Below, one piece after another: positions 3,589-37,631 of a DNA stretch of 37,631 bases. Position numbers and translations under genes: made by a program. The stretch is from Saprospiraceae bacterium (GTDB lineage Bacteria; Bacteroidota; Bacteroidia; Chitinophagales; Saprospiraceae). The DNA is taken from positions 1-37,631 of the forward strand of contig JAYVIT010000199.1 of assembly GCA_043769965.1 (NCBI GenBank), in the 5' to 3' direction. Positions within the stretch are counted from its first letter, which is position 1. The number at the start of each line of letters is the position of its first letter. The notes beneath the pieces were generated by a model, which saw only the letters and a program-made list of their open reading frames with translations, made no database searches and had not been told where the DNA came from.

Positions 3589-4002
3589 TTAGAAATTTAA
3601 GAATTCAGTTGCTGTACCAGCTTTTAAGCGAAGGCGGAATTTTCCAGCTTTGCTCAATTTACTACGATCAATTACCAAGTTTCCAGCTGCATCTTTAGTA
3701 ACTGCTGATTCACCATTAGCAACTGGTGATCCACCAGCATCCACGATATCATAAGATAAATCGATACCACGATTTTTTCCTTTGAAAGGGTTACCTGATA
3801 ATAATCTCCTTGAAGCTTTTCCACCTTTTTTAACTGATGGAGTTTCAACGTAGATGCTTGGGCAACATTTCATCGCGTCATTAGGATCTCTCTGATCTCC
3901 AGAAGTCGTTGAGCCGTCACCTCCACTGGTTACCTGTGCCGATAAATTTGTTGTTAAAAGCATCGCAAAAAATGCCGAAGCGAATAAAATTGTTTTTTTC
4001 AT
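3589..4002 (-). CDS. small secreted hypothetical protein
   Basis: 137-aa ORF with signal peptide (MKKTILFASAFFAMLLTTNLSAQ) and a terminator directly downstream. Confidence 0.6.
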   Translation of the reverse strand: MKKTILFASAFFAMLLTTNLSAQVTSGGDGSTTSGDQRDPNDAMKCCPSIYVETPSVKKGGKASRRLLSGNPFKGKNRGIDLSYDIVDAGGSPVANGESAVTKDAAGNLVIDRSKLSKAGKFRLRLKAGTATEFLNF

Positions 4003-4874
4003 TTTTGAAAAGTTTAATGTGAATAAATATTTGTTTGTTAAAAATTTGATTGATTAATTGTTAAATTGTTGAATTGTTGATTGCTAAATTCTTTTTCCGT
4101 TTCTCTGTTTCTCCGTTTCTCCTATTTTCTGATTGTTTGTCTTCCTTAAATTGGTTCTTTTGGAGTATTTTTTTTGTGGTTCTTTATTTCGATTTTGTAC
4201 CTTGAAATAGACATAATTCGGAAAGGTTATCAGCCAGATTCAAAAAAAATTAAAATACCGGAATTCTTTAATCCCGGATCGCTTTTAAAATGCTCATTTA
4301 ATTCATTTGTAAATGTAAAAGATTTAACTGATTAATCAATTACACAAATCCTCCAGGTGGTTTTTTAATGAAGATAATTTGTACCATTTTCCAGCAAAAC
4401 CATACGGACTAATAGTTAATTGCTCGACCGTATTTTGGATATAATTTTAAAATTATAAACTAATTGACTGATAATGAAGCAATATATATAAACATGTATT
4501 TTATAATATGTTTCATTTGTATCAACACAAATGGCAATTCGCAAGGACATCATATATATGGAGTATCTGGCTTATCTTTGTTAGTACCTGAAGTTATCGT
4601 GTGTTCTTTGATATTTTCCCCGATTGATAAAAGTCATTTATTTCCTCGATTCGGTGATTGCTCCATTGTAATTCCAATCTATGAATTCGGAAAGCTGAGT
4701 GCGACCATTTCCAATATTTGAAATTCTTTTTCACAGTACTTGCTCTAGATTCAATAGCAACAATTAAACTCATCTCCATAAAGTTGAAAGGAAATGATAA
4801 CAAATTCATATCAGGGGATATATTGAAGGCAAATGATACTTTAGATTAAAGTAGTTCACATAGTATTATAAACC

Positions 4875-6872
4875 ATGACTATTAAATACATCATATTGAC
4901 TTTTGGGATTTTCTGGAGTATTATTTCGCTTCAGGCCCAATCCAACGTCCATAAAAAAGCCTTGCTCATTGGCGTTGGGAATTATCCTAGTACAGGTGGA
5001 TGGAATAGTCTGAACTCTGCAAACGATATCGGATTACTAAAAGACGCACTTCAAAATCAGGGTTTTACTTCAGAAAATGTTTATGTGATTGCAGATGACC
5101 AAGCCACTAAAGAAAACATCATCGCAGCCATTAAAACAAAACTCATTAAAGAAGTAAAAAAAGGAGATATCGCATTCTTTCACTTTTCAGGACATGGTCA
5201 ACAGAAGGAGGACAAAGATGGCGATGAGATCGATGGATATGATGAATGTATAGTCCCTTTTGATTCTCCTAAAAAATATGTACCCGGCGGATACCAGGGT
5301 GAGAATCTTATCAGCGATGATGAGCTTCGTAAAATCCTGGATGATCTTAGAAAACAACTTGGCAGTACCGGTCATCTCATCGTTTCATTAGATGCTTGCC
5401 ATTCAGGTACAGGCACAAGAGGTATGTCTCAGGGAAGAGGAACAACAGAACCAATGGCCAGTCCGGGTTATATGCAAAATAATATTCAGAATAAAATTAA
5501 AAAAGAAAATAACCAGATAAGTAGTCCAGGTGCATCTTCTTCACTGGCACCAATGATTGCATTTTTCGGATCTGCTCAAAATCAAATCAATTATGAAATG
5601 ACTGATGAACAGGGCAAGCAGTTCGGATCACTGAGTTATGCCCTTTCAAAATACCTGGTATCATCAAAAAAAGATGAATCTTATCGCGGTCTGTTTGATA
5701 AAATAAAAGTAGAAATGAGTGCAATTGCACCAATGCAACAACCGCAAGTTGAAGGCAATCTGGATATGGAAGTTTTCAATGGCAAAGCATTGGGTGCTAC
5801 AAGTTATTATAAAGTAATTTCGGCTGCTGATGACGATAACATTACCATAAATGGTGGTTTTTTACAGGGTCTCAACAATGGATCGATTGTAGGTTTCTTC
5901 AAACCGGAAACCCGGGATATCGAAAATAATAAACCAATTGTAACCGGAAAGATTACAAAGAGTATGAATACTTCTTCTGTGGTTACCTTGGATTCGTTAG
6001 TCGCACCTGAAATTTTAAAAGATAATTGGGTTTATGTTTTGGAACAAAGCATGGGCGATATCAAAGTAGCAGTAGATATAAAAATTTCAGATCCGGTCAT
6101 TCTCGATAAAGTCCGTACTAAATTATTTAGTTATTCATTCATCATTGATGATCCCAAAACTGCAAAATTAATTATCGAAGAACGAAAAAATTCGAAAGGA
6201 GTAACTTATTTATTTTTAACAACCCATGACGATTATATCCTCGACAGTTTTCTCGTTATCTCCGAAAATGATAGTTTTGTAAATAGACTTAATAGTAAGA
6301 TTATTAAATATCTTAAAGGTCAAACTTTGCGAAAGATGGCCATGGAAAATGAAGATCTAAAACTAACGCTACAAATCATACCGGGCTCTTTAAATTCTCA
6401 TGTAACAAACATCGATTCATTAATTCCATTAAAAGAAGATGCGACCGGATCGAAACAAGCTAAAGTTGGAGATACCTTTCAGATTATAATTGAAAATAAA
6501 GGTAACAAACCGGCCTATTTTCATCTGTTTGATATCATGCCAGATAACAAGTTTGAATGCTTGCTTCCTGATACGCATCAAACTCCTGAAGAAATGAAAA
6601 TATTACCAGGACAACGGATACTGATACCAAATAAAGAATGGATAGTTGGAGAACCACTTGGAAATGAATTATTCAAACTCATTGCATCCAACAAACCTTT
6701 GGACCTCAGATCTGTGTATGCCACAAGAGGAGCTAGTACTAAAACTCCTGTGGAAAAATTATTCTTCGAATTAGAAAATGCTGATCTCTTAAGAACAAGG
6801 GGAAGCAAACCTATACCAGTAGGAAATATGGAAATCAATATTTATTCAGAACCATTTATCATTGTGAAATAA
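4875..6872 (+). CDS. exported caspase-like peptidase (C14 family) with DUF4384-like C-terminal domain
   Basis: Signal peptide MTIKYIILTFGIFWSIISLQAQ. Dyad motifs HFSGHGQ and LDACHSGTG. The C-terminal region (GDTFQIIIENKGNKPAYFHLFDIMPDNKFECLLP...ELFKLIAS) resembles the domain commonly fused to bacterial caspases. Confidence 0.8.
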   Translation: MTIKYIILTFGIFWSIISLQAQSNVHKKALLIGVGNYPSTGGWNSLNSANDIGLLKDALQNQGFTSENVYVIADDQATKENIIAAIKTKLIKEVKKGDIAFFHFSGHGQQKEDKDGDEIDGYDECIVPFDSPKKYVPGGYQGENLISDDELRKILDDLRKQLGSTGHLIVSLDACHSGTGTRGMSQGRGTTEPMASPGYMQNNIQNKIKKENNQISSPGASSSLAPMIAFFGSAQNQINYEMTDEQGKQFGSLSYALSKYLVSSKKDESYRGLFDKIKVEMSAIAPMQQPQVEGNLDMEVFNGKALGATSYYKVISAADDDNITINGGFLQGLNNGSIVGFFKPETRDIENNKPIVTGKITKSMNTSSVVTLDSLVAPEILKDNWVYVLEQSMGDIKVAVDIKISDPVILDKVRTKLFSYSFIIDDPKTAKLIIEERKNSKGVTYLFLTTHDDYILDSFLVISENDSFVNRLNSKIIKYLKGQTLRKMAMENEDLKLTLQIIPGSLNSHVTNIDSLIPLKEDATGSKQAKVGDTFQIIIENKGNKPAYFHLFDIMPDNKFECLLPDTHQTPEEMKILPGQRILIPNKEWIVGEPLGNELFKLIASNKPLDLRSVYATRGASTKTPVEKLFFELENADLLRTRGSKPIPVGNMEINIYSEPFIIVK

Positions 6873-6881
6873 ATTATTTTT

Positions 6882-8420
6882 ATGAAAACTCTTAGTGTAT
6901 TCTCATTTGTATTAATTGCAACATTTTTGCATAGCCAGGATTTAAACATTTACTACGATGTGCATAATGACAGCATGTGGTATGTAAGAAAAGGTAAAGT
7001 GATCGATGAACCCATCGTAAAAAAAGGGGATCAGGTTTACTTTCATCTGGTCGAATTTAATAATTACATCTACAAAGCTGAATTCAAAGCAACAAACAGC
7101 ACGGCTCCTTTTGGCGCAGCACCAGCTCCTGGCAACAGCCTTATAAAAAGTCTTTTGTCCGGACTGGTTAGTGGTTTTGTACCCGGCGCAGGATTGGGAT
7201 TGCTAAGTACACCATTATTTGGAAATATTCTTGGCGCCATTCCAGAAGGTCAGGATGGCACTGGAAGAGGTCAGCAGGAAGATTTGGAAGCATTCCAAGC
7301 TAAACTAAAAGAATTGGAAATTGCTAAAGAAGAAATCAATTCATTGACCGAAGAAATTAATATCCGCAGAAAATCTTTAGCTTCTCTCAGTGGCACCTAT
7401 TCATTTACCAATGATTTGTGCAAAAGCAAAAATGTGGCTCCATCATTGATCAAGGAACTTTTAATCAATCATTGCAGCGAAATCTTTTTAAAATCTGCAA
7501 CTGAAAATATCACTTTAGATGAAATTGCAATACTCAATAATAAATTGATTGAGATACCCAGATTGGAAAAGGCATTGAAAGAAAAAATGAACAACTATAC
7601 ATCCGGTTTGAAAGATCTCAAAAAACAACGCGAGAAACTACAACAAGTGGATCATGGTATCGATGCATTGTATCCCTTGATTAAGAAACTCGAATTAAAT
7701 GAAAGTCAACTTGAGATTTCAGGAAATACAATGGTAGCTGAACTGGATAAACAATGTGCTGCTGATGATCAAATGAAAAAAACAGATTACACCAGTCAGA
7801 TACAACAGTTCTATCTGAAGTATCATGAGATCAGAGAAAATTCATTTTCATTTACACATCATTCCAGTGCAGAACAAAAGTATCTGATTTATGAAATGGA
7901 TCTTTATGCACTCGATAGTGCATCGGCGAATTCTGATGAAAAAGTAAGTGTGAAACACATCGAAGTAAAAGTAAAGACTTACGGTGGTACACAATTTGGG
8001 TTGAGTGTAGGATTAGTTGGTTCTAAGTTTGCCGAGACACCTCAAGGATACTTCATCCGGAATGATGAAATATTTGCAACAGATAAAGATCCTTATGTTC
8101 CTTTTATCTCATCACTCTTTAATTTGAGCTATGATCTTGGTGCATACATTTCTCCGGCTGTTTCATTGGGAATAGGCATTCCATTATCCTCAGATGAAAA
8201 TGCATCCGGTTTCGCCTTGTTTGCAGGACCGGGTATGTACATTGGAAAAAAACAAGCTTTCATGTTATCTACAGGTGCAATGTTTACTAAGACCAGTACT
8301 TTGGCAAAAGGATTTCTGGTTGGCGATAAAATTAATATCGGTGAAGGCGAAATACCAACAGACAAAAAATTTGCACTTGGATATTTTATCAGTGTTACGT
8401 ATAATCTTTCAGCGATGTAA
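6882..8420 (+). CDS. secreted coiled-coil protein with beta-rich (possibly outer-membrane barrel) C-terminus
   Basis: 512-aa ORF starting 9 nt after the end of the caspase gene. It has a signal peptide, a Gly-rich segment, a long heptad-like central region and a C-terminal alternating hydrophobic pattern (FALGYFISVTYNLSAM). Confidence 0.6.
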   Translation: MKTLSVFSFVLIATFLHSQDLNIYYDVHNDSMWYVRKGKVIDEPIVKKGDQVYFHLVEFNNYIYKAEFKATNSTAPFGAAPAPGNSLIKSLLSGLVSGFVPGAGLGLLSTPLFGNILGAIPEGQDGTGRGQQEDLEAFQAKLKELEIAKEEINSLTEEINIRRKSLASLSGTYSFTNDLCKSKNVAPSLIKELLINHCSEIFLKSATENITLDEIAILNNKLIEIPRLEKALKEKMNNYTSGLKDLKKQREKLQQVDHGIDALYPLIKKLELNESQLEISGNTMVAELDKQCAADDQMKKTDYTSQIQQFYLKYHEIRENSFSFTHHSSAEQKYLIYEMDLYALDSASANSDEKVSVKHIEVKVKTYGGTQFGLSVGLVGSKFAETPQGYFIRNDEIFATDKDPYVPFISSLFNLSYDLGAYISPAVSLGIGIPLSSDENASGFALFAGPGMYIGKKQAFMLSTGAMFTKTSTLAKGFLVGDKINIGEGEIPTDKKFALGYFISVTYNLSAM

Positions 8421-26978: not shown

Positions 26979-28568
26979 ATGGTATCAATAAGACCGGAAG
27001 AAATTTCAGCGATTTTAAAACAACAGATTTCAGGAGCAAATACAGCTGCATCTCTTGAGGAAGTAGGAATTGTGTTACAAGTAGGAGATGGTATTGCCCG
27101 TGTGTATGGATTGTCCAATGCACAATCAGGTGAACTTGTAGAATTTGAAACAGGAACACAAGCCATCGTATTAAACCTGGAAGCAGATAATGTGGGTGTG
27201 GTATTGATGGGTCCTTGGGATGGAATTAAAGAAGGTTCTAAAGTACGACGCACCGGAAAAATTGCATCTATTGATGTTGGAGAAGGAATGGTTGGACGCG
27301 TTGTCAATCCATTGGGACAACCAATCGATGGTAAAGGTCCGATCTCGGGTACGAAATATGAAATGCCATTAGAGCGCAAAGCACCCGGTGTTATTTTCCG
27401 TCAGCCGGTAAATGAGCCATTGCAAACTGGAATCAAAGCAATTGACTCGATGATTCCAATTGGTAGAGGTCAACGTGAGTTAATAATCGGCGACCGTCAA
27501 ACTGGAAAGACTGCAATTGCTATTGATACTATTATAAATCAAAAAGAATTTTTCGATAGAGGTGAACCCGTTTTTTGCATCTATGTAGCATCCGGACAAA
27601 AATCATCTACAGTTGCGAAAGTTGCAAGGACTTTAGAAGAATATGGAGCGATGTCTTATACTGTCATTGTATCTGCATCAGCTGCCGATCCGGCACCATT
27701 GCAGTTCTTTTCACCATTTGCGGGTGCAGCAATTGGCGAATTTTTCCGCGACACCGGTCGTCCTGCATTAGTAATCTATGATGACTTATCAAAACAAGCT
27801 GTTGCATATCGTGAAGTATCTCTGTTGCTTCGTCGCCCACCGGGACGTGAAGCATATCCTGGAGATGTATTTTATCTGCATTCAAGATTATTGGAGAGAG
27901 CTGCAAAGATTCTCAACAATGATGAAATTGCAAGAACAATGAACGATTTACCAGATTCATTGAAGAATGCAGGAATCGTAAAAGGTGGTGGTTCTTTGAC
28001 AGCGTTGCCAATTATCGAAACACAAGCAGGTGACGTTTCTGCATATATTCCTACAAACGTAATTTCAATTACAGACGGACAGATCTTTCTTGAATCCAAC
28101 TTATTCAATGCTGGTATTCGACCTGCAATCAACGTTGGTATTTCCGTATCGCGTGTGGGTGGTAATGCACAAATCAAATCCATGAAAAAAGTTGCAGGTA
28201 CTTTAAAACTGGATCAGGCACAATACCGCGAACTGGAAGCCTTTTCAAAATTTGGTTCTGATCTCGACGCTGCTACTAAAGCAGTTCTCGATAAAGGAAA
28301 ACGAAATGTGGAAATTTTGAAACAAGCGCAATACAGTCCGGTATCAGTTGAAAAACAAGTTGCGATGATTTATCTGGGTACATTCAATTTGTTGAGAGAT
28401 GTTCCAGTTGAAAAAGTGAAAGATTTTGAAAATGTGATTCTCACTACACTCGAACAAAAACATCCTGATATATTGGAAAATTTCCGCAAAGGTCTATTGA
28501 ATGATGCGGATTTAAATATTCTCAAAGGGATTGCAGCAGATATGAGTTCCCAATACAAGGTAGCATGA
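26979..28568 (+). CDS. atpA: F0F1 ATP synthase subunit alpha
   Basis: Walker A GDRQTGKT, plus [19 protein letters not shown] and the overall highly conserved sequence. Confidence 0.97.
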
Positions 28569-28633
28569 TTTGATAATCTATCAACTAACAACCAACTCCC
28601 GACTTTCGGGACCAGAACTATCAACTTTAAAAC

Positions 28634-29527
28634 ATGGCAGCCAATTTAAAAGAAGTACGGAATCGAATCAAGTCGGTGGTTTCTACACAGCAGATTACTA
28701 AAGCCATGAAAATGGTTTCTGCTGCAAAACTCAGAAAAGCACAAACTGCTATTCAACAGTTGAGGCCATATGCAATCCGTTTAAATAAAACATTGAGCAA
28801 TATACTTTCAGGTGGTGATGGTGGTTCGGGATCATTTGGAAAAATGACACAAAAACAAAAACCACTATTGATCATCATAACTTCTGACAGAGGATTGTGT
28901 GGTGGATTCAATGCCAACATTCACAAATTGGCCAATGCGTATATCAAAGAACATTATACAAATCAGCAGGCAGCTGGTAATTTAAATTTTCTATGTATTG
29001 GAAAGAAAGGATTTGAATTTTTCAGACGCCGTTATCCAACTGCAAATTTCATTACGGATTACCAGCAATTATATAGTAACCACAGTTTTGAAAAAATCGC
29101 CGAACTCGCAGACCGCTTGATGAAAGATTTTCAGGATGGTACTTATGATCAGATGGAATTATATTACGGCAGATTTAAAAATGCAGGTACACAGTTTCCA
29201 GAAAGAGAACAATACCTTCCTGTTGCAAAACTTGCCGTAGAAAAAAACAACACAACTGAAATGGGCCCGGACTATATTTTTGAGCCCGATCAAAAATCTC
29301 TATTGGATGAGTTAATTCCTTCTATATTACAAACACAAATTTTCAAATGTCTTCTCGATACGCAAGCATCTGAACATGGTGCGCGTATGACCGCCATGGA
29401 CAAAGCCACCGAAAATGCGGAAGATATGCTCGGCGAACTCCGTATCAACTACAACAAAGCAAGACAGGAAGCGATCACTAAAGAATTATCGGAGATTGTT
29501 GGTGGGGCGGCTGCGCTTGCAGGGTAA
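28634..29527 (+). CDS. atpG: F0F1 ATP synthase subunit gamma
   Basis: N-terminus LKEVRNRIKSVVSTQQITKAMKMVSAAKLRKAQ and C-terminus ARQEAITKELSEIVGGAAAL. Confidence 0.95.
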   Translation: MAANLKEVRNRIKSVVSTQQITKAMKMVSAAKLRKAQTAIQQLRPYAIRLNKTLSNILSGGDGGSGSFGKMTQKQKPLLIIITSDRGLCGGFNANIHKLANAYIKEHYTNQQAAGNLNFLCIGKKGFEFFRRRYPTANFITDYQQLYSNHSFEKIAELADRLMKDFQDGTYDQMELYYGRFKNAGTQFPEREQYLPVAKLAVEKNNTTEMGPDYIFEPDQKSLLDELIPSILQTQIFKCLLDTQASEHGARMTAMDKATENAEDMLGELRINYNKARQEAITKELSEIVGGAAALAG

Positions 29528-29779: not shown

Positions 29780-32700
29780 ATGAAAAAAATCCTTGGATTA
29801 GATATTGGTACAAACTCAATTGGCTGGGCTTTCATAGAAAGCAATGCGTATGAAAATCCGGAACAATTAGAAGGTAGAATTTTAAATCTTGGCAGTAGAA
29901 TCATCCCAATGGATGGTGATGCCTTAAACAAATTTGAATCGGGTGTACCGGAGTCGAGAGCTGCAGCTCGAAGACAAGCAAGAGGAGTGAGAAGACTTAA
30001 TCAAAGATACAAATTAAGAAGAACCAGACTTTTACAAGCTTTAAAAATTTTAGGCTGGATATCCAATGATTTTCCAACAGAGTTTAAAAGACTTTCCAAG
30101 CATGATATCAATCAATTTCTTCCTTATTCAAATGAATTAATAAAAGAAGCAGAAGAGTTCTTTGAAATAAATGAACTTAAAACAACACGAGGTTTGGATT
30201 ATCATATTTCTGAAGATTGGATTATATACTACTTAAAAACAAAAGCTATTAAAAAGCAGGTAAGTTTAACAGAACTTGGAAGAATTTTATACCATTACAA
30301 TCAGAGAAGGGGATTTAAAAGCAGCAGGAAAGATTCGAAGATTGAAGAAGAAATATCCGAAGTAAAATACCCAATTTATGACAAATGGGTGGAAATTGTA
30401 AAAATTAATGACATTATAGAAAATGGCAAGGGGGACGGAAAAGATAAAGAGTTTACATTCTATAAACTTATTTGTCAAACACCAACTTTACAATTTGAGG
30501 CGATTAAAAAAAGAAAAAATCCCTTAGACTGGAAAGGGAAAGAAATTGAAATTGAGATAACGAGAAAGACTACTAAATCCGGAGATATTTCATTTACCAT
30601 TTCAGAGGTCGATCCGGCAGCGTGGGAAAGTAGAAAAAGAGCTTTAGAAAATGATATCCGGAATGAAGGCTTACCCATTTCTGAATATTATCTCAATAAC
30701 CTAAAAAAGAATCTTAAAAACGGGAATTACCGAATAAAGCAAAGAATTGTCGACCGCAAATTTTATCAGGAAGAATTTAAAGCAATTTGGGCAAAACAAT
30801 CTGAGTACTATCAAACAGAATTCACAAATAATAATATTATATTTGAAATTGCGGATACTTTCTACAAACACAACAAAGAAAAAAATAATGAACTTAAATC
30901 AAAAGATTTATTTCATATTTTCTTTAACGATATTATCTACTATCAAAGAGGATTAAAATCTCAGAAAGGATTATTAGCTAATTGCCAGTACGAAATAAAA
31001 AAATTTAAAGACAAAGATGGTATTGAACATATAGCCAGGGTAAAAGTCGCATCAAAAAGTCATCCACTTTTTCAAGAATTCCGTATTTGGCAAACTATTC
31101 AGAATCTAAAAATTATTCAAAAAGAAGATTCATCATCTGGTAAGTTAAAACTGAACATTGATGTAAGTGATCAATATCTTTTAGTAAAAAATAAAGAGCT
31201 ACTTTTTGAATTATTCGATAACTCAAAAGAAGTGAGTCATGATGCAATCCTAAGGTTATTAGGATTCAAAAAAGAGTTAATTGAAAATAGAGAAAAAACA
31301 TATAATTATAAATTGAATTATCCTAATGATAAAGACTTTCAAGGAAATGAAACTAAAAACTTGTTTCGAAGTATATTTAAGAAACATAACTTTATTGAAG
31401 AAGGTGAAAAATACATTTCAGATCCGGAAAAGCTTCATCTGCTTTGGCATATAATTTATTCATTGCCAGAAGAAGCTGAAATCATTAGTGCCTTAAATAA
31501 TAAAAAATACTTCGATTTTCCCGAATCTGTTATTTCTCACTTTTCAAAAGTTCCTGAGTTTAAAAGTCAATATGGTGCTTATTCAACGAGGGCCTTAAAC
31601 AATCTTTTGCCGTTGATGAGGATAGGTAAATATTGGCAAGCAGATAATCTATCTCCAAAAGAAAAAGGTGAAAAAGGATTCAGTGTGAAACCCACCATAA
31701 ACTTAAAAAGCAGAATTGAATCCATTTCAAACTGGGAGGTAGACCCAAATATTCCAATAAGAGTAAGAGAATTAGCTCAAATTTATAAATTGGAAAATAT
31801 TCAAGATTTTCAAGGGCTACCTACAACCTTAGCCTGTTATATTGCCTATGGAAGACATAGTGAAAAAGTTAATGAAGACAAATATGAAAGCAATGAAGAA
31901 TTGGATGTTAATAAATTAATACCCAATAATTCTTTACGAAATCCTGTAGTTGAAAAAATAATAAGAGAAACTCTCAAACTTGTGAAAGATGTATGGGCTG
32001 ATAAAGATTTAGGGAGACCCGATTACATCCATGTAGAATTGGGCCGAGAAATGAAAAACAACAATGAAGACAGAAAGAAAATTTATGAGAATAATACGAA
32101 CAACCGAATTGAAAAAGATCGTGTAGCAATTCTTTTAAAAGAACTTAAGTATCCGAATTTTAATCCAGACTCTCCTAATGATCTGGATAAATTCAAAATC
32201 TGGAAAGAAAATGGCGGAATTGAAGGTGAAGAAATATTTGATGAATTGTTTAAGAAAAATAAATCTGAATTTATCAAAGATGCAGATATCGAAAAATACA
32301 GGTTATGGGCTGAACAAGGTTATAAATCTCCTTACACGGGTCTGGCAATTCCGCTTAGTGATTTGTATGCAATTCCAAAAAAATATGAAATAGATCACAT
32401 AATCCCTAGAAGTAGATTCTACGATGATTCATTAGGAAATAAAGTAGTTATTGAGGCAGAGGTTAATGCTTTAAAAGGTAATAAATTAGCAATTCAGTTT
32501 ATCGAAGATTTCCAAAATCAGGACATTGAACTAAGCAATGGCAAAAAGATTAGAGTCTTAGCTCTTGAAAATTATAAAATAAACGTAGAAGAAATTTTTA
32601 AAAATAGAAAAAAGAAACGTCACTTAAAACTATACGAGATCCCTCTTGACTTCATTGATCGTCAAATGAATGACACAAAATACATTTCAAGAACAATAGC

Positions 32701-34582
32701 TCAATTATTAAGGCCGGTAGCAATTGGTACCGATACTGATCAGGGAGTTGTTTATACTTCTGGATCCATCACTTCCGATTTAAAAGGAAAATGGGGCTTA
32801 CATAAGTTATGGAAAGATCTCTTAAAGCCTCGTTTTGAAAGATTAGAGAATATTTTAGGAGAAGAATTAATAATTCCTAATGACAAGGATAAGAATGGAG
32901 ATTATCATTTTGCTAAAGACTATAAACGAATAGATCACAGGCATCATGCTTTAGATGCACTTGTCATAGCATGCACAACCAGAAGCCACATCAAATATTT
33001 AAATTCACTTAGCTCCTTAAGCAATGACAAGAAAGACTTTACAAGATATGAAGAATGGAAAAAGTATTTTTATCTATTAAATAAAAAGAAGCAATTAGAA
33101 GGGCTGAAAAATGGAATGCTGGAATTTGCCACTCCATGGGGAACATCTGAATCATTTTATACAGATGTAAAAGAAAAAATGGAATCTATAATCGTATCTC
33201 ATAAACAAACTGCAAAACTGATTAGTAAAGCCAGTAATAAATACTGGAAATGGAAAGAAATTGATGGAGAATGGAAAAAAGTGCTTGACACTCAACAAGC
33301 TCCAAAAGATGAAGACAAATATTGGGTGGCGGTAAGACAGTCTTTATTTGGGCAACCTTTAGGTAAAATTCATCTGGCAGAATATAAAAAAGATGTTGAA
33401 CTAAAAAAAGCTATTAAATACCAAATAGACTTTATTGTAGAACATAGATACCATTGGAATTCAGAACATTTTAGAATTGCATTGTCTTCATTAAGAAAAC
33501 AAGTTGATAAGATAATAGCTCAATTTAATAATGACGAAAAAGCAATTTTAAAATACCTAGAAAAATATCCATTAAAGGATAGTCAAAATAAGAGTATTGA
33601 AAAAATTGATCTATTAAAATTTGCAAAGTATGCCTCTAAACGGGTTAGCATAGATGAATCATTTGGTTTAGATAAAATCAATGCCTTGCCATATTCTGAA
33701 ATTGAAAAAAACTGGCTAACAAACTTACTAAGAAAACATTTGGAGGAATATGATAATCCGAAAGAAGCTTTTAAAGGCGAAGCATTGGAACAATTATTTA
33801 AAAAATCTCCGTTTCCAATAAACAAAGTAACTAGAAAAGAAAGTGGTGATAAAATTGAAATAAATAATAAATTGCTAGATGGTGATAAAGGAGTTAATCA
33901 ATATTTCATCATTGAAATATCGCAGGAGTTAGATAAAAAAACAGGAGAATTAGTTTCGAAAAGAGTTTATTCAACTCCTCCTTTTTTAGAATCCGTTAAA
34001 AGACTTGCTAAATGTTTACCATTATTTGATCCAATTCAAGAAAATAAATATATTGTTCTTTCTCCAGGGGATTTAGTTTATGTTCCTGAAATCAATGAAC
34101 AAATTAATCAAATTGATTGGTCTAATAAAAAGAACATCGCTGAAAAAACATATATTCTTAAAAGTTTTAGTAAAACACAATGTTTTTTTATTCCTTCATC
34201 CATTTCTAGCCCAATAATAGATACTATAGAACTAGGTGCAAATAATAAATCTGAAAGATCATTTGATGGTCAAATGATTAAAAATGTTTGTTTAAAAATT
34301 AAAATTGATCGCTTAGGCAATATAACTCATTATGAAGATGGCAAAAATAATCTTAATTATTCGAATGATTCTAGTATCAGTATTGCCAATGAGCCTCTTT
34401 CACCATACACTTCTATAAAAACAATTATTGTGTCTAATTCTTTTGAAGAAGCTGAAAATTCTCAAGTGGACTATTGGGCAAACCTTAGTCCGGAACAGCG
34501 GTTTAAGGATTTTTATGCTCTGATGCTACGCTTTTTTACATTTAACAAACCGGATTGGTCTAAATATAAAATCACCTTATAA
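29780..34582 (+). CDS. cas9: type II-C Cas9 endonuclease, 1600 aa, with ~85-aa non-canonical C-terminal extension
   Basis: RuvC-I GLDIGTNSIGWA (D8). Arg-rich bridge helix RAAARRQARGVRRLNQRYKLRR. RuvC-II YIHVELGRE (E753). HNH YEIDHIIPRS...N..V...N..KGN (D872/H873). RuvC-III HHALDALV (H1055-D1059). Confidence 0.95.
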   Translation: MKKILGLDIGTNSIGWAFIESNAYENPEQLEGRILNLGSRIIPMDGDALNKFESGVPESRAAARRQARGVRRLNQRYKLRRTRLLQALKILGWISNDFPTEFKRLSKHDINQFLPYSNELIKEAEEFFEINELKTTRGLDYHISEDWIIYYLKTKAIKKQVSLTELGRILYHYNQRRGFKSSRKDSKIEEEISEVKYPIYDKWVEIVKINDIIENGKGDGKDKEFTFYKLICQTPTLQFEAIKKRKNPLDWKGKEIEIEITRKTTKSGDISFTISEVDPAAWESRKRALENDIRNEGLPISEYYLNNLKKNLKNGNYRIKQRIVDRKFYQEEFKAIWAKQSEYYQTEFTNNNIIFEIADTFYKHNKEKNNELKSKDLFHIFFNDIIYYQRGLKSQKGLLANCQYEIKKFKDKDGIEHIARVKVASKSHPLFQEFRIWQTIQNLKIIQKEDSSSGKLKLNIDVSDQYLLVKNKELLFELFDNSKEVSHDAILRLLGFKKELIENREKTYNYKLNYPNDKDFQGNETKNLFRSIFKKHNFIEEGEKYISDPEKLHLLWHIIYSLPEEAEIISALNNKKYFDFPESVISHFSKVPEFKSQYGAYSTRALNNLLPLMRIGKYWQADNLSPKEKGEKGFSVKPTINLKSRIESISNWEVDPNIPIRVRELAQIYKLENIQDFQGLPTTLACYIAYGRHSEKVNEDKYESNEELDVNKLIPNNSLRNPVVEKIIRETLKLVKDVWADKDLGRPDYIHVELGREMKNNNEDRKKIYENNTNNRIEKDRVAILLKELKYPNFNPDSPNDLDKFKIWKENGGIEGEEIFDELFKKNKSEFIKDADIEKYRLWAEQGYKSPYTGLAIPLSDLYAIPKKYEIDHIIPRSRFYDDSLGNKVVIEAEVNALKGNKLAIQFIEDFQNQDIELSNGKKIRVLALENYKINVEEIFKNRKKKRHLKLYEIPLDFIDRQMNDTKYISRTIAQLLRPVAIGTDTDQGVVYTSGSITSDLKGKWGLHKLWKDLLKPRFERLENILGEELIIPNDKDKNGDYHFAKDYKRIDHRHHALDALVIACTTRSHIKYLNSLSSLSNDKKDFTRYEEWKKYFYLLNKKKQLEGLKNGMLEFATPWGTSESFYTDVKEKMESIIVSHKQTAKLISKASNKYWKWKEIDGEWKKVLDTQQAPKDEDKYWVAVRQSLFGQPLGKIHLAEYKKDVELKKAIKYQIDFIVEHRYHWNSEHFRIALSSLRKQVDKIIAQFNNDEKAILKYLEKYPLKDSQNKSIEKIDLLKFAKYASKRVSIDESFGLDKINALPYSEIEKNWLTNLLRKHLEEYDNPKEAFKGEALEQLFKKSPFPINKVTRKESGDKIEINNKLLDGDKGVNQYFIIEISQELDKKTGELVSKRVYSTPPFLESVKRLAKCLPLFDPIQENKYIVLSPGDLVYVPEINEQINQIDWSNKKNIAEKTYILKSFSKTQCFFIPSSISSPIIDTIELGANNKSERSFDGQMIKNVCLKIKIDRLGNITHYEDGKNNLNYSNDSSISIANEPLSPYTSIKTIIVSNSFEEAENSQVDYWANLSPEQRFKDFYALMLRFFTFNKPDWSKYKITL

Positions 34583-34584
34583 CT

Positions 34585-35058
34585 ATGAATTTCACACACC
34601 CTGCTCATCAAGAAATGATACTTGCGCTTCTTCAAAATGATGTTGAATTTATTTTAATTGGCGGTTACGCAGTAATTTATCATGGATATGTCAGAACCAC
34701 CGGCGATATGGATGTTTGGCTTAATCCTTCTGATGACAATAAGCAAAAACTATTGAAGGTATTTACTCTTTTAGATTTTGATCCTGAAGGTATAAAAATA
34801 ATTGAAGACATGGATTTTCAGGATGTTGTCGTATTCCACATTGGCATTGAACCGGAACGGATTGATTTTTTAAGTAAGGTGGAGGGCTTAAACTTTGAAG
34901 AAGCCTTTAGACAAAAAGAAATATTGCACATGGAGTCTTATGCAATTCCCTTCCTTCGGCTGGATGATTTAATCGCAAACAAATTATTGGTGAATCGCAA
35001 TAAAGATAAGGCTGATATTGAAAATCTGATAAAAATAAATAAACTTCGGTTTAAGTAA
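34585..35058 (+). CDS. minimal nucleotidyltransferase-fold protein (Pol-beta superfamily), non-cas gene inside the cas operon
   Basis: VEFILIGGYAVIYHGYVRTTGDMDVWL (GG-x-...-D-x-D NTase signature) and C-terminal LDDLIANKLLVNRNKDKADIENL. ATG lies 2 nt after the cas9 stop. Confidence 0.6.
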   Translation: MNFTHPAHQEMILALLQNDVEFILIGGYAVIYHGYVRTTGDMDVWLNPSDDNKQKLLKVFTLLDFDPEGIKIIEDMDFQDVVVFHIGIEPERIDFLSKVEGLNFEEAFRQKEILHMESYAIPFLRLDDLIANKLLVNRNKDKADIENLIKINKLRFK

Positions 35059-35098: not shown

Positions 35099-36025
35099 AT
35101 GACACCAGAAGTAACAGGATATTGGACTTTTTTTTGCAATCCATCGAAATGGCAAATTGACCGCTTTTTAGAGACCAACCCTGAATACGATAGTTATCAG
35201 ATTAATGAATGGTATAAACACGATGTTAAACTAGGACAACTTGGAATTATCCGTGTTGGTTTGGATAACAGAACAAAAGAACAACTTAGCAGCAGGTCGA
35301 AACTTAAATCAGGAATTTATGCTCTAGTTGAAATTATCGGAGAACCCGAAATAACAAAATCCAAGTCAGACTTTTATTTAATACAAGAAGAGCAAGGACA
35401 AGAAAAACTTCGTGCTCGGATTCGGTATTTAAAAAATCTTCTTAATAATCCTTTACGACTGGAGTACTTAAAAGAAAACCCGATTGTTAATAAAGACCAA
35501 TATTTAATTGGTGGCTTTCAGCGCTCTACAATGCCGTTGCGAAAAGATGCATTTGAAGAAATAATAAATTTTCTCGGAACTGATGAACAAATATTCAAAA
35601 ATATAGAAATTGAAACCGCTGATACTATTGACAAAATAGCATGTCTTGAATTGAAATATCAAAACGCTTCACCTCAAGTTAAGGAAGTGATTAGTAAAAG
35701 AATTGAAAGAGGTAAAATTTCTTCTACAATCAAAGAGCTTTACGATTACAAATGCAAAGTTTGTGAAGTAATTGGGCAAAGCCCGCTTTCATTCAAAAAA
35801 ATAAATGGCGAGTTTTATGTTGAAACACATCATATAATTCCTGTGGCTAATTTGATACAAGGTTCGTTAGGGATTTCAAACCTGATAACCGTTTGTGCAA
35901 ACCATCACAGGCAATTTCACCATGGTGACATAAAGATTCTTGAAAACACACCAGACAAATTAACACTGAAGATTGACGGACAAACTATAAAGGTTGAAAA
36001 GTATAAATTTGCCAGCCTAAAATAA
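35099..36025 (+). CDS. EVE(PUA-like)-HNH fusion nuclease, modification-dependent restriction endonuclease-like
   Basis: N-terminus GYWTFFCNPSKWQIDRF...GQLGIIRVG...SGIYALVEIIGEP resembles EVE domains. C-terminus YKCKVCE...ETHHIIP...NLITVCANHHRQFHHG is an HNH (CxxC...HH...N...CxxHH) nuclease motif. Confidence 0.7.
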   Translation: MTPEVTGYWTFFCNPSKWQIDRFLETNPEYDSYQINEWYKHDVKLGQLGIIRVGLDNRTKEQLSSRSKLKSGIYALVEIIGEPEITKSKSDFYLIQEEQGQEKLRARIRYLKNLLNNPLRLEYLKENPIVNKDQYLIGGFQRSTMPLRKDAFEEIINFLGTDEQIFKNIEIETADTIDKIACLELKYQNASPQVKEVISKRIERGKISSTIKELYDYKCKVCEVIGQSPLSFKKINGEFYVETHHIIPVANLIQGSLGISNLITVCANHHRQFHHGDIKILENTPDKLTLKIDGQTIKVEKYKFASLK

Positions 36026-36149: not shown

Positions 36150-37058
36150 ATGATTAAAAAGACCTTATATTTTGGCAATCCGGCTTATCTGTCTGTAAAA
36201 GATGAACAACTGATTGTAAAAGATCCTGAGGCCGTTTCATCAGGAGATAATGTAAAAGCGAGCATTCCAATAGAAGATATCGGCTTGGTAGTACTTGACC
36301 ATCAAAGAGTCACAGTCACTCATACATTATTGGTAAAATTGATAGAAAACAATGCCGCGATTATTACCTGCAATGATGCACATCTACCAATCTCCCTGAC
36401 ATTACCGCTTGCTTACAATGACACCTTTAGTGAAAAAGTAAAATATCAACTGGAAGCCTCAGAACCATTGAAGAAACAGCTTTGGCGACAAACAATCATG
36501 GCTAAACTCAACAATCAATCAAAAGTGTTAAGCCTATTGGGAATCGGAGCCATTGAAATAGAAAAGATGATGATGCGGGTTGGGAGCGGAGATCCAGAAA
36601 ACTATGAAGCCCAGGCAGCCGCTATTTATTGGGATAGAATATTAGATAAATACAATGTAACAAGAGGTCGTTTTGACGGACATCCGAATCATTTTTTTAA
36701 TTACGGCTATGCCATATTAAGATCCATCATTGCCAGAAGCCTGGTAGGAAGCGGATGTCTTCCGGTTTTAGGTATTCATCACACTAACAAATACAATCCT
36801 TATTGTCTGGCTGATGATATTATGGAGCCATATAGACCAATTATAGATCTTATGATTTGTAAGTATCTATCCACTCAATCAGAAATATCTGAAAATCTTA
36901 CCAAACAGGACAAAGCACATTTGCTTACCATTCCGGTAATTGATGTAATCATTGCCGGAAAATCCAGCCCTCTCATGGTAGGATCACAAAGGACTACCGC
37001 GAGTCTGGTAAAATGCTATCAAGGCAGTGAAAGAAAACTATTATATCCAATGCTTTAA
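36150..37058 (+). CDS. cas1: CRISPR-associated endonuclease Cas1 (type II)
   Basis: NYGYAILRS, LGIHHTNKYNPYCLADDIMEPYRP and overall type II Cas1 layout. The stop overlaps the cas2 start (TAATG). Confidence 0.9.
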   Translation: MIKKTLYFGNPAYLSVKDEQLIVKDPEAVSSGDNVKASIPIEDIGLVVLDHQRVTVTHTLLVKLIENNAAIITCNDAHLPISLTLPLAYNDTFSEKVKYQLEASEPLKKQLWRQTIMAKLNNQSKVLSLLGIGAIEIEKMMMRVGSGDPENYEAQAAAIYWDRILDKYNVTRGRFDGHPNHFFNYGYAILRSIIARSLVGSGCLPVLGIHHTNKYNPYCLADDIMEPYRPIIDLMICKYLSTQSEISENLTKQDKAHLLTIPVIDVIIAGKSSPLMVGSQRTTASLVKCYQGSERKLLYPML

Positions 37059-37393
37059 TGCTTGACCGGCTAAATAAATATAAAATCATGTGGGTATTCG
37101 TACATTTTGATTTGCCTACCGAGACCAAGAAGGACAAAAAGAATTATACACAGTTCCGTAAGTTCTTGATCAAAGATGGTTTTAATATGATCCAGTATAG
37201 CATCTATGCAAGACATTGCAGCTCGCGTGAAAATGCGGAAGTACATAAGAAGCGGGTCAAAAAATATTTACCACCGTTTGGAAATGTTATTGTTTTTGAA
37301 ATAACAGATGCCCAATTCGGAAGGATGGAATTCTTTAATGGTGTAAAGCCTCAGGATGCTCCCTTAATGCATGTACAACTTGAAATGTTTTAG
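37058..37393 (+). CDS. cas2: CRISPR-associated endoribonuclease Cas2
   Basis: MWVFVHFDLPTETKKDKKNYTQFRKFLIKDGFNMIQYSIYARHC pattern typical of type II Cas2. Confidence 0.85.
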   Translation: MLDRLNKYKIMWVFVHFDLPTETKKDKKNYTQFRKFLIKDGFNMIQYSIYARHCSSRENAEVHKKRVKKYLPPFGNVIVFEITDAQFGRMEFFNGVKPQDAPLMHVQLEMF

Positions 37394-37444: not shown

Positions 37445-37502
37445 TTTCTGATTCTAAATGCAAGATTAAATCATTGAATTTGAATCTTTTAGATGGGGGT
37501 AT

Positions 37503-37631
37503 GTTGTTACAAATCTAATCAATTCAAAGAACGAAAGCAAATCACAACCTCCCTTGTTAGGGGTAGTCTTAATAAATGTTGTTACAAATCTAATCAATTC
37601 AAAGAACGAAAGCAAATCACAACACAAGCCG
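37503..37631 (-). CRISPR. CRISPR array (two full 46-nt repeats, one 29-nt spacer, start of a second spacer), truncated by the window end; predicted to be transcribed on the minus strand
   Basis: Identical repeats gttgttacaaatctaatcaattcaaagaacgaaagcaaatcacaac at 37503-37548 and 37578-37623 (75-nt period). Boundaries could shift by up to 2 nt because 'at' precedes both copies. The reverse complement starts GTTGTGATTTGCTTTC, the usual Bacteroidota II-C orientation. Confidence 0.9.

Follow-up and report, generated by a model that had tools for sequence, protein, structure and literature searches.

The C-terminal tail of a Saprospiraceae type II-C Cas9 is almost certainly the fused partner of a small-protein/nucleotidyltransferase cassette and may act as its antitoxin

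Toxin-antitoxin (TA) modules that guard cas genes by penalizing their loss have been proposed in PMC9458426 and in the main text of PMC10910872. In CreTA, the toxin stays silent for only as long as the cell has the CRISPR effector, to which cells are thereby addicted (PMC9458426, PMC12737573). A second point of reference is MenAT1 of M. tuberculosis, which consists of MenA1 (Rv0078B) and MenT1 (Rv0078A) and belongs to the AbiEii/DUF1814 superfamily. MenT1 puts CMP onto tRNA 3' ends, and MenA1, a 68-amino-acid (aa) helical antitoxin whose gene lies directly upstream of that for MenT1, neutralizes it, bridging two MenT1 protomers and inducing the auto-phosphorylation of T39 (PMC10435456, PMC11375011). 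AbiE (AbiEi/AbiEii, type IV TA) and HEPN-MNT (type VII TA) likewise place nucleotidyltransferase (NTase)-fold proteins in two-gene conflict modules. Here, we describe a cas9 gene whose product ends in an unusual tail of 85 residues, directly upstream of a gene for a short NTase, in a stretch of 37,631 nucleotides (nt) from a Saprospiraceae bacterium (assembly GCA_043769965.1, contig JAYVIT010000199.1, positions 1 to 37,631), referred to as the window. The tail is almost certainly the fused partner of a cassette made up of a small protein and an NTase, and the reading that we favor on balance is that of a MenAT1-like TA cassette with its antitoxin tethered to Cas9.

The window holds a type II-C CRISPR-Cas locus composed of cas9, cas1, cas2, and a CRISPR array, with neither csn2 nor cas4. 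cas9 (29780-34582, + strand) encodes 1600 aa, of which residues 1-1515 (29780..34324) form the body, a type II-C-like large Bacteroidota Cas9 whose C-terminal end is KIKIDRLGNI (aa 1506-1515). The body matches TIGR01865 (E 1e-121) and the Pfam domains HNH_4 and RuvC_III, and the catalytic positions of RuvC and HNH do not vary across the alignment of Cas9 orthologues. The tail (aa 1516-1600, nt 34325-34579) begins with a Ser/Asn-rich linker of 22 aa (THYEDGKNNLNYSNDSSISIAN; 34325..34390, + strand) that is predicted to be disordered, and continues into a tail core (aa 1538-1600; 34391..34579, + strand) in which an EPxxxY motif is followed by two helices (nt 34442-34480 and 34490-34534). The stop codon of cas9, a TAA at 34580..34582 (+), lies 2 nt before the ATG of the NTase gene (TAACTATG), which encodes a 157-aa DUF6036/DUF2204 protein with similarity to MenT1 (34585..35058, + strand). 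This is the arrangement that an earlier note on this DNA had reported from the letters alone: a 1600-aa Cas9 with an ~85-aa tail past IDRLGNI, abutting an NTase gene.

Comparison with other Cas9 proteins indicates that the tail is a discrete addition. Among the 120 best Cas9 orthologues, which are 44-67% identical, 117 have a recognizable ...DRLGN-type end, and the length after this motif is bimodal, with 2-29 aa in 102 of the 117, 82-91 aa in the remaining 15 (the window protein included), and nothing between, in agreement with the suggestion that the tail extends beyond the usual end of a Cas9. The 15 tails can be aligned with one another and have in common an invariant Glu-Pro with an aromatic residue after it, followed by F.SFeE.e....a.LsPe..l, with the window tail only 20-33% identical to the other tails, whereas the corresponding Cas9 bodies are ~60-67% identical. 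The linker is unconserved in this alignment, its counterpart being the Lys-rich N-terminus of free-standing proteins, and the window linker contains no in-frame ATG, GTG, or TTG from 34325 to the EP motif. An AlphaFold2 model based on an alignment of 78 sequences has tail residues 1-25 disordered (pLDDT ~47-63) and helices at residues 40-52 and 56-70 (pLDDT >90), and thus the Ser/Asn-rich linker named in the earlier note is also disordered by prediction over its 22 aa. Searches of Pfam, NCBIfam, PADLOC, and PDB sequences found no family for the tail or the small proteins related to it, and Foldseek found no match to the tail model.

The tail has homologues that stand on their own. The tail by itself gave no matches in a word-index homology search, and an exhaustive hidden Markov model (HMM) search with a profile of the 15 tails against 1.84 billion cluster representatives returned 525 proteins at E<=1e-3, 140 of them at E<=1e-10. 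Nearly all of these are 60-110 aa long and align from about residue 5 to their own C-terminus; the few long matches are Cas9 proteins or C-terminal fragments of Cas9. The free-standing homologues, which carry only the name "hypothetical protein" in the source records, open with a Lys-rich M-K-K... lead and are then tail-like from the EP motif to a final ...K-I-x-F. The signature SFEE..E....W..L[ST]PE[EQ]R is present in three of them (P0186, P0321, and P0339), and a free-standing protein from a Chitinophaga metagenome-assembled genome (MAG), located away from CRISPR loci (L013), falls in the same subfamily as the window tail (YWA.L.PE.RF.DFY.LM..F). The stand-alone relatives anticipated by the earlier note therefore exist in their hundreds, and their genes immediately precede those for homologues of the 157-aa NTase.

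The same gene order recurs in relatives of the window Cas9. In three further tail-bearing orthologues (P0013, P0045, and P0078) and in the distant P0109, a gene for a 155-159-aa DUF6036/DUF2204 protein follows cas9 at distances from a 4-nt overlap to 6 nt, and cas1-cas2 follow the NTase gene, inverted in the case of P0109. In two tail-less orthologues, cas9 runs straight into cas1. Across relatives, 0-10 nt separate the cas9 stop from the NTase start, unless the two overlap as ATGA. The unfused state is seen in Pedobacter cryotolerans, in which the cas9 stop is followed after 11 nt by a gene for an 80-aa small protein and then by genes for a 159-aa NTase, Cas1, and Cas2. Pairs of the small gene and the NTase gene are also found without nearby cas genes, one contig having two such pairs. 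In L010, two copies of the cassette (1383-2180 and 4001-4773) lie ~2.6 kb apart outside any CRISPR locus, and in L062 (5354-8000) two tandem copies lie downstream of a different Cas9 type.

With the NTase alignment as query, a search of the GTDB at one genome per species retrieved 554 relatives, of which the best 80 loci, containing 82 NTase genes, were classified with local HMMs, weak cases being read by eye. These best 80 of the 554 all belong to Bacteroidota, Balneolaceae included, so that the proposal of stand-alone proteins with this motif beside NTase genes in Bacteroidota and Cyanobacteria was borne out for the former, with none seen in the latter among these loci. For every one of the 82 NTases, a partner open reading frame (ORF) ends between -19 and +28 nt from the NTase start, most commonly as an ATGA overlap. 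The partner is free in a two-gene cassette with no cas gene in the flanks for ~51 NTase genes, free but inside a type II locus, between the cas9 and NTase genes, for ~9, fused to cas9 for ~22, and fused to another upstream gene for none. In an independent sample of metagenome Cas9 genes, 36 loci had a readable 3' end, and 3 of them had both tail and NTase and 33 had neither; pooled with the locus look-ups, both were present in 8, the tail alone in 0, the NTase alone in 0, and neither in 32 (Fisher p = 1.3e-8, a value that is indicative only because the loci are phylogenetically non-independent). Among the orthologues, no tail was seen without an adjacent NTase, and the tail-less ones examined had no NTase.

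These recurrences also bear on whether the tail is real. The existence of unfused loci of exactly this layout would be compatible with a sequencing or assembly error that erased a true cas9 stop near 34325, but such an error is so improbable here as to be negligible. There is no in-frame start codon from 34325 to the EP motif with which a separate small gene could begin, the closest relatives (L012 and L014, the latter the complete genome of Algoriphagus halophytocola) have the same fusion with a tail of the same subfamily, and the same in-frame fusion recurs in over 25 genomes and metagenome contigs that are independent of one another. The identical 1600-aa protein is, in addition, on record in two contigs. 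A one-off loss of a stop codon was rejected along with assembly error, as the architecture recurs.

How the fusions arose can be seen at their junctions. Within Pedobacter, a fused and an unfused locus form a sister pair: in Pedobacter sp. ASV28 the junction reads ...KVGEE-MDNNYRQ... in one frame, with the Met of the small gene retained, and in P. cryotolerans it reads ...KIGEY-stop-11 nt-MKKYNKN.... Several other junctions have the form DRLGNI-SPx-KKK..., that is, the native end of Cas9 joined to residue 2 onward of an MKKK... protein. On an 85-leaf NTase tree, at least 12 changes between the fused and unfused states are needed, compared with a mean of 23 and a minimum of 16 for shuffled labels, and on the Cas9 tree the tail-bearing proteins are scattered among tail-less ones (these are neighbor-joining trees without support values). 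The fusion to cas9 thus arose many times. The in-frame fusion of a small partner gene put forward in the earlier note is therefore visible at the Pedobacter junctions, while its character as a single accident is not upheld, given the recurrence described here and the purifying selection described below.

The history of the tail follows that of the NTase and is decoupled from that of the Cas9 to which it is attached. For 24 fused loci, the distances of tail and NTase are strongly correlated (Mantel r = 0.84, p = 2e-4), whereas those of the Cas9 body are correlated neither with the NTase (r = -0.02) nor with the tail (r = 0.02). Cas1 distances correlate with both the NTase (r = 0.53) and the tail (r = 0.60); those of the Cas9 body and Cas1 are uncorrelated (r = -0.02, 19 loci). 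Two pairs of loci illustrate this. Between L005 and L063, the tail cores are 81% identical in amino acids (dN/dS 0.19), the NTases 86% (0.13), the linkers 70% (0.49), Cas1 76%, and Cas2 81%; between L046 and L055, the corresponding values are 80% (0.11), 83% (0.09), 53% (0.76), 90%, and 88%. The Cas9 bodies of both pairs are only ~30-40% identical along their length. The tail core is thus under purifying selection (dN/dS 0.11-0.19, against 0.5-0.8 for the linker), and since tail, NTase, Cas1, and Cas2 are alike where the Cas9 bodies are divergent, the last 85 residues belong historically to a block of tail, NTase, cas1, and cas2. This suggests that the block, which includes the adaptation module cas1-cas2, has been combined with different Cas9 bodies through a breakpoint at the boundary encoding DRLGNI, the tail staying with cas1-cas2 when the body is swapped. 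An extension of the protospacer adjacent motif (PAM)-interacting domain, which was considered as an identity for the tail, was ruled out by this decoupling from the Cas9 body and by the free-standing homologues.

The co-occurrence of tail and NTase and their co-evolution apart from the Cas9 body argue for a recurrent, selected architecture rather than a one-off lost stop. The same observations can be set against a neutral account, in which a selfish TA cassette repeatedly enters the gap between cas9 and cas1 and small deletions fuse the antitoxin to Cas9 with no benefit and no cross-talk; because the antitoxin would thereby lose its own start and promoter, fission would be lethal and fused forms would accumulate. 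Several features suit such a ratchet. In the unfused Pedobacter locus, only ~11 nt separate the cas9 stop from the start of the small gene, so that a tiny indel suffices for fusion, and little constraint acts on the disordered linker. Other TA families likewise have modules next to cas9, listed in the PMC10910872 supplement: UAS-35, UAS-161 (HicAB), and UAS-162, the last of which appears from its sequence to be ParE-like. At least 12 transitions, an excess of fused over unfused forms of ~2:1 within CRISPR loci, and a fused block that stays in frame through whole exchanges of the Cas9 body all fit it poorly, however, and we regard it as quite unlikely. It would still need the NTase to be harmful without the tail, and it differs from the TA reading that we favor only on whether the coupling is selected.

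The link to known toxins lies in the NTase itself and is marginal in sequence. The window protein matches PF19502 (DUF6036; E 8e-7, 29.4 bits against a cut-off of 23.6), and of 37 members of the family, 34 match DUF6036, 28 match DUF2204 (PF09970), and 5 weakly match AbiEii. The 37 members have in common G26 G27 Y A V, G34, R37, T39, D41, D43, K133, R138, D141, and D144, and the window protein accordingly shows GG26-27...T39.D41.D43 followed by K133, R138, D141, and D144. These residues include the classical NTase signature G[GS]...DxD, taken here as G[GS]x9-13DxD. NTases linked to CRISPR loci and those away from them interleave on the tree, with all catalytic residues common to both, which indicates that the activity of the NTase is not CRISPR-specific. 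When the NTase profile was compared with all PDB sequences, the sole significant match was MenT1 (8an4/8an5/8rr5; E 8.6e-6 and 5.2e-5), over ~140 of the 157 positions. T39, D41, K137, and D152 of MenT1 align with the invariant T39, D41, K133, and D144; these four MenT1 residues are the ones substituted in PMC10435456, and T39 is the phospho-acceptor (PMC11375011).

The likeness to MenAT1 extends to the layout of the module, both systems having a short NTase with a small helical partner upstream, and the partner here is ~70-80 aa long and helical in the AlphaFold2 model, MenA1 likewise being short and helical. Judged from sequence, this parallel is one of distant toxin homology and module layout, not of homology between the partners. 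Unlike MenAT1, the window NTase falls in DUF6036/DUF2204 and not in AbiEii, the host belongs to another phylum, and the partner is covalently part of Cas9. Unlike AbiE, the partner is not of the COG5340/AbiEi type with a DNA-binding domain. A HEPN-MNT module was also considered and rejected, since there is no Pfam HEPN match and no Rx4-6H motif, and the partner is a two-helix hairpin. The analogy to MenAT1 leads us to consider it reasonably probable that the tail and the NTase are an antitoxin-toxin pair.

One variant of the small protein adds to this, and we count it as support in that its architecture is antitoxin-like. In P0259 (locus L171, 678-1061), the small domain is followed by an XRE-type helix-turn-helix (HTH) domain (HTH_3, E 1.5e-12), and a small domain with an XRE HTH is the classical layout of a type II antitoxin. 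The contig ends at this gene.

These comparisons show the homology of the tail to free-standing proteins, its synteny, co-occurrence, and co-evolution with the NTase, the purifying selection on its core, and the recurrence of the fusion. We infer from them a physical binding of the tail to the NTase, toxicity of the NTase, a tRNA target, and a consequence for Cas9, and a mechanism may be proposed in these terms. The small partner of a mobile two-gene cassette, which encodes an ~80-aa helical protein and a ~157-aa DUF6036 NTase, has almost certainly become joined through an ~22-aa disordered linker to the C-terminus of a type II-C Cas9. The two-helix core of the tail would bind the NTase made from the coupled downstream ORF and hold it inactive, tying the supply of antitoxin to the synthesis and persistence of full-length Cas9. 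The tail lacks a start codon of its own and comes last in an ORF of 4.8 kb; it can be made only with full-length Cas9, and neutralization of the NTase would therefore be hard-wired to the integrity of Cas9. When Cas9 is lost, truncated, or destroyed, the NTase would be left unneutralized and growth would be arrested, which would make the cassette a guard of cas9, or a means of addiction to it, and perhaps an abortive-infection back-up as well. Conceivable triggers include nonsense and frameshift mutants that escape autoimmunity, deletion of cas9, and phage anti-CRISPRs that degrade or sequester Cas9. The arrangement would amount to a covalent, protein-level guard of Cas9 and an anti-anti-CRISPR abortive-infection switch that would have evolved repeatedly. 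A guard or addiction role of the cassette for cas9 is, at this point, a possibility somewhat short of probable, and we put forward still more tentatively the specific proposal that Cas9 also serves as antitoxin to an NTase toxin that modifies tRNA, and that the removal of full-length Cas9 would unleash this toxin.

Several points weigh against this interpretation. NTase folds also serve many non-toxic roles, and the similarity to MenT1 is weak (E ~1e-5). The window NTase has no Pfam AbiEii match, and PADLOC has no model for it. The small-protein profile did not retrieve the MenA1 chain of 8an5 in a search of all PDB sequences at E<=10, the model of the small partner gave no Foldseek match, and a literature search found no report of toxicity, binding, or activity for DUF6036. 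The logic of a guard is itself weakened if the translational coupling of the NTase start to the cas9 stop means that a premature stop in cas9 might lower toxin production as well. Furthermore, the NTase is intact in L084, in which cas9 has an in-frame stop (6292-6294) ~240 codons before its end, and in L047, a long-read MAG with a cas9 frameshift at ~6263-6275. On a strict guard model, such cases should be rare or erroneous; unless these two stem from misassembly, they are natural exceptions to it.

The linkage to CRISPR loci could also be explained by a cooperative function. In this alternative, an active, non-toxic NTase is held at Cas9 by the tail, which serves as a docking domain, and the cassette is a fourth component of these type II-C systems; working where Cas9 acts or in adaptation, the NTase might add nucleotides to cleaved DNA ends, prespacers, or the 3' ends of the CRISPR RNA (crRNA) or trans-activating crRNA (tracrRNA), or might modify Cas9. 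The CRISPR-linked cassette always lies between cas9 and cas1, its history correlates with that of cas1 (r = 0.53-0.60), the catalytic residues are invariant in CRISPR-linked NTases, and the fusions are specific to Cas9, with none to other upstream genes in the ~51 non-CRISPR contexts. The NTase was also picked up independently as a CRISPR-linked gene, UAS-101. On the other hand, ~60% of the sampled cassettes are autonomous and far from cas genes, the CRISPR-linked NTases form no specialized clade, and most close Cas9 orthologues, 100 of 115, do without the cassette. A tail modified by its own NTase is not favored either: 3 of the 15 tails have F or L where the others have the conserved Tyr of EPxxxY, which makes the tail an unlikely substrate for Tyr nucleotidylylation, and this Tyr was rejected as the nucleotidylylation site. 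Taken together, recruitment of a non-toxic NTase appears unlikely to us, and the TA reading is preferred.

Part of the cassette has been catalogued before. UAS-101 "(DUF2204)" is listed by Altae-Tran et al. (2023), in the PMC10910872 supplement, as a single CRISPR-linked gene of unassigned function found in 19 loci, and the uas101A sequence given there is near-identical to the NTase of locus L079 and belongs to the same family as the window NTase. The searchable text and supplements of PMC10910872 mention neither a partner, nor a Cas9 tail, nor a TA reading for UAS-101; concealed within Cas9, the partner was invisible. A December 2025 review of the coupling between TA and CRISPR systems mentions no case of an antitoxin-Cas9 fusion, and the literature search, whose coverage excluded most subscription journals, found no description of the small partner, the Cas9 fusion, or the link to MenT. 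The NTase is thus already known as UAS-101, and the small partner and its fusion to Cas9 are new as far as this search shows.

If the tail is an antitoxin, it would be the first case, as far as we have found, of a CRISPR effector that covalently carries the antidote to a neighboring toxin, and it would suggest an answer to how a costly, autoimmunity-prone cas9 is retained. It would then be a protein-level counterpart of CreTA, with which it shares the proposed logic only: CreTA is RNA-based, with an RNA toxin held down by a crRNA-like antitoxin RNA through Cascade-guided repression, whereas both components here are proteins and the coupling would be a covalent fusion of antitoxin and Cas9. Irrespective of this, the small-protein/DUF6036 cassette is widespread and unannotated, with 554 matches in species-representative genomes and 525 partner clusters. 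The result also has implications for Cas9 mining, as such Cas9 proteins have their last 85 aa from another evolutionary source; these residues, which the nuclease probably does not need, may bind an enzyme that is toxic to the host. Cultured strains are at hand for the fused state (Algoriphagus halophytocola TR-M5, L014; Pedobacter mendelii CCM 8685, L026; and Pedobacter sp. ASV28, L074) and for the unfused state (Pedobacter cryotolerans AR-2-6, L043), which makes the hypothesis directly testable.

The remainder of the window operon is as follows. Downstream of the NTase gene and on the same (+) strand are a gene for a 308-aa protein with EVE and HNH domains (35099-36025; Pfam EVE E 1e-6, HNH E 1e-5), cas1 (36150-37058, +; Pfam Cas_Cas1 E 1e-21), and cas2 (37058-37393, +; Pfam CRISPR_Cas2 E 1e-20), followed by the start of a CRISPR array (37501..37631) with repeats of 47-48 nt at a spacing of 75 nt, which the end of the window cuts off. 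The NTase and EVE-HNH genes are the only extra genes in this cas operon. A 20-nt repeat probe with <=3 mismatches found no tracrRNA or anti-repeat in the window, and an Rfam scan gave no match anywhere in it. The EVE-HNH gene, which stands between the NTase gene and cas1, has a weak PADLOC match to type IV methyl-directed restriction, and, from its domains, its product may be a restriction nuclease dependent on modified DNA. None of the ~170 related loci fetched contains a homologue of it, so that it appears to have entered the cas operon recently. Directly upstream of the operon are atpA and atpG, for the alpha and gamma subunits of ATP synthase (26979-29527); the neighborhood is thus one of housekeeping genes with no obvious defense island. 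Among the other loci, L011 (4291-4772), L038, L049, and L077 and L080 (~7001-7500) have an intact partner beside an NTase that is broken into two ORFs with a partial HMM match each; these split NTases may be toxin pseudogenes, which would suit a TA cassette in decay.

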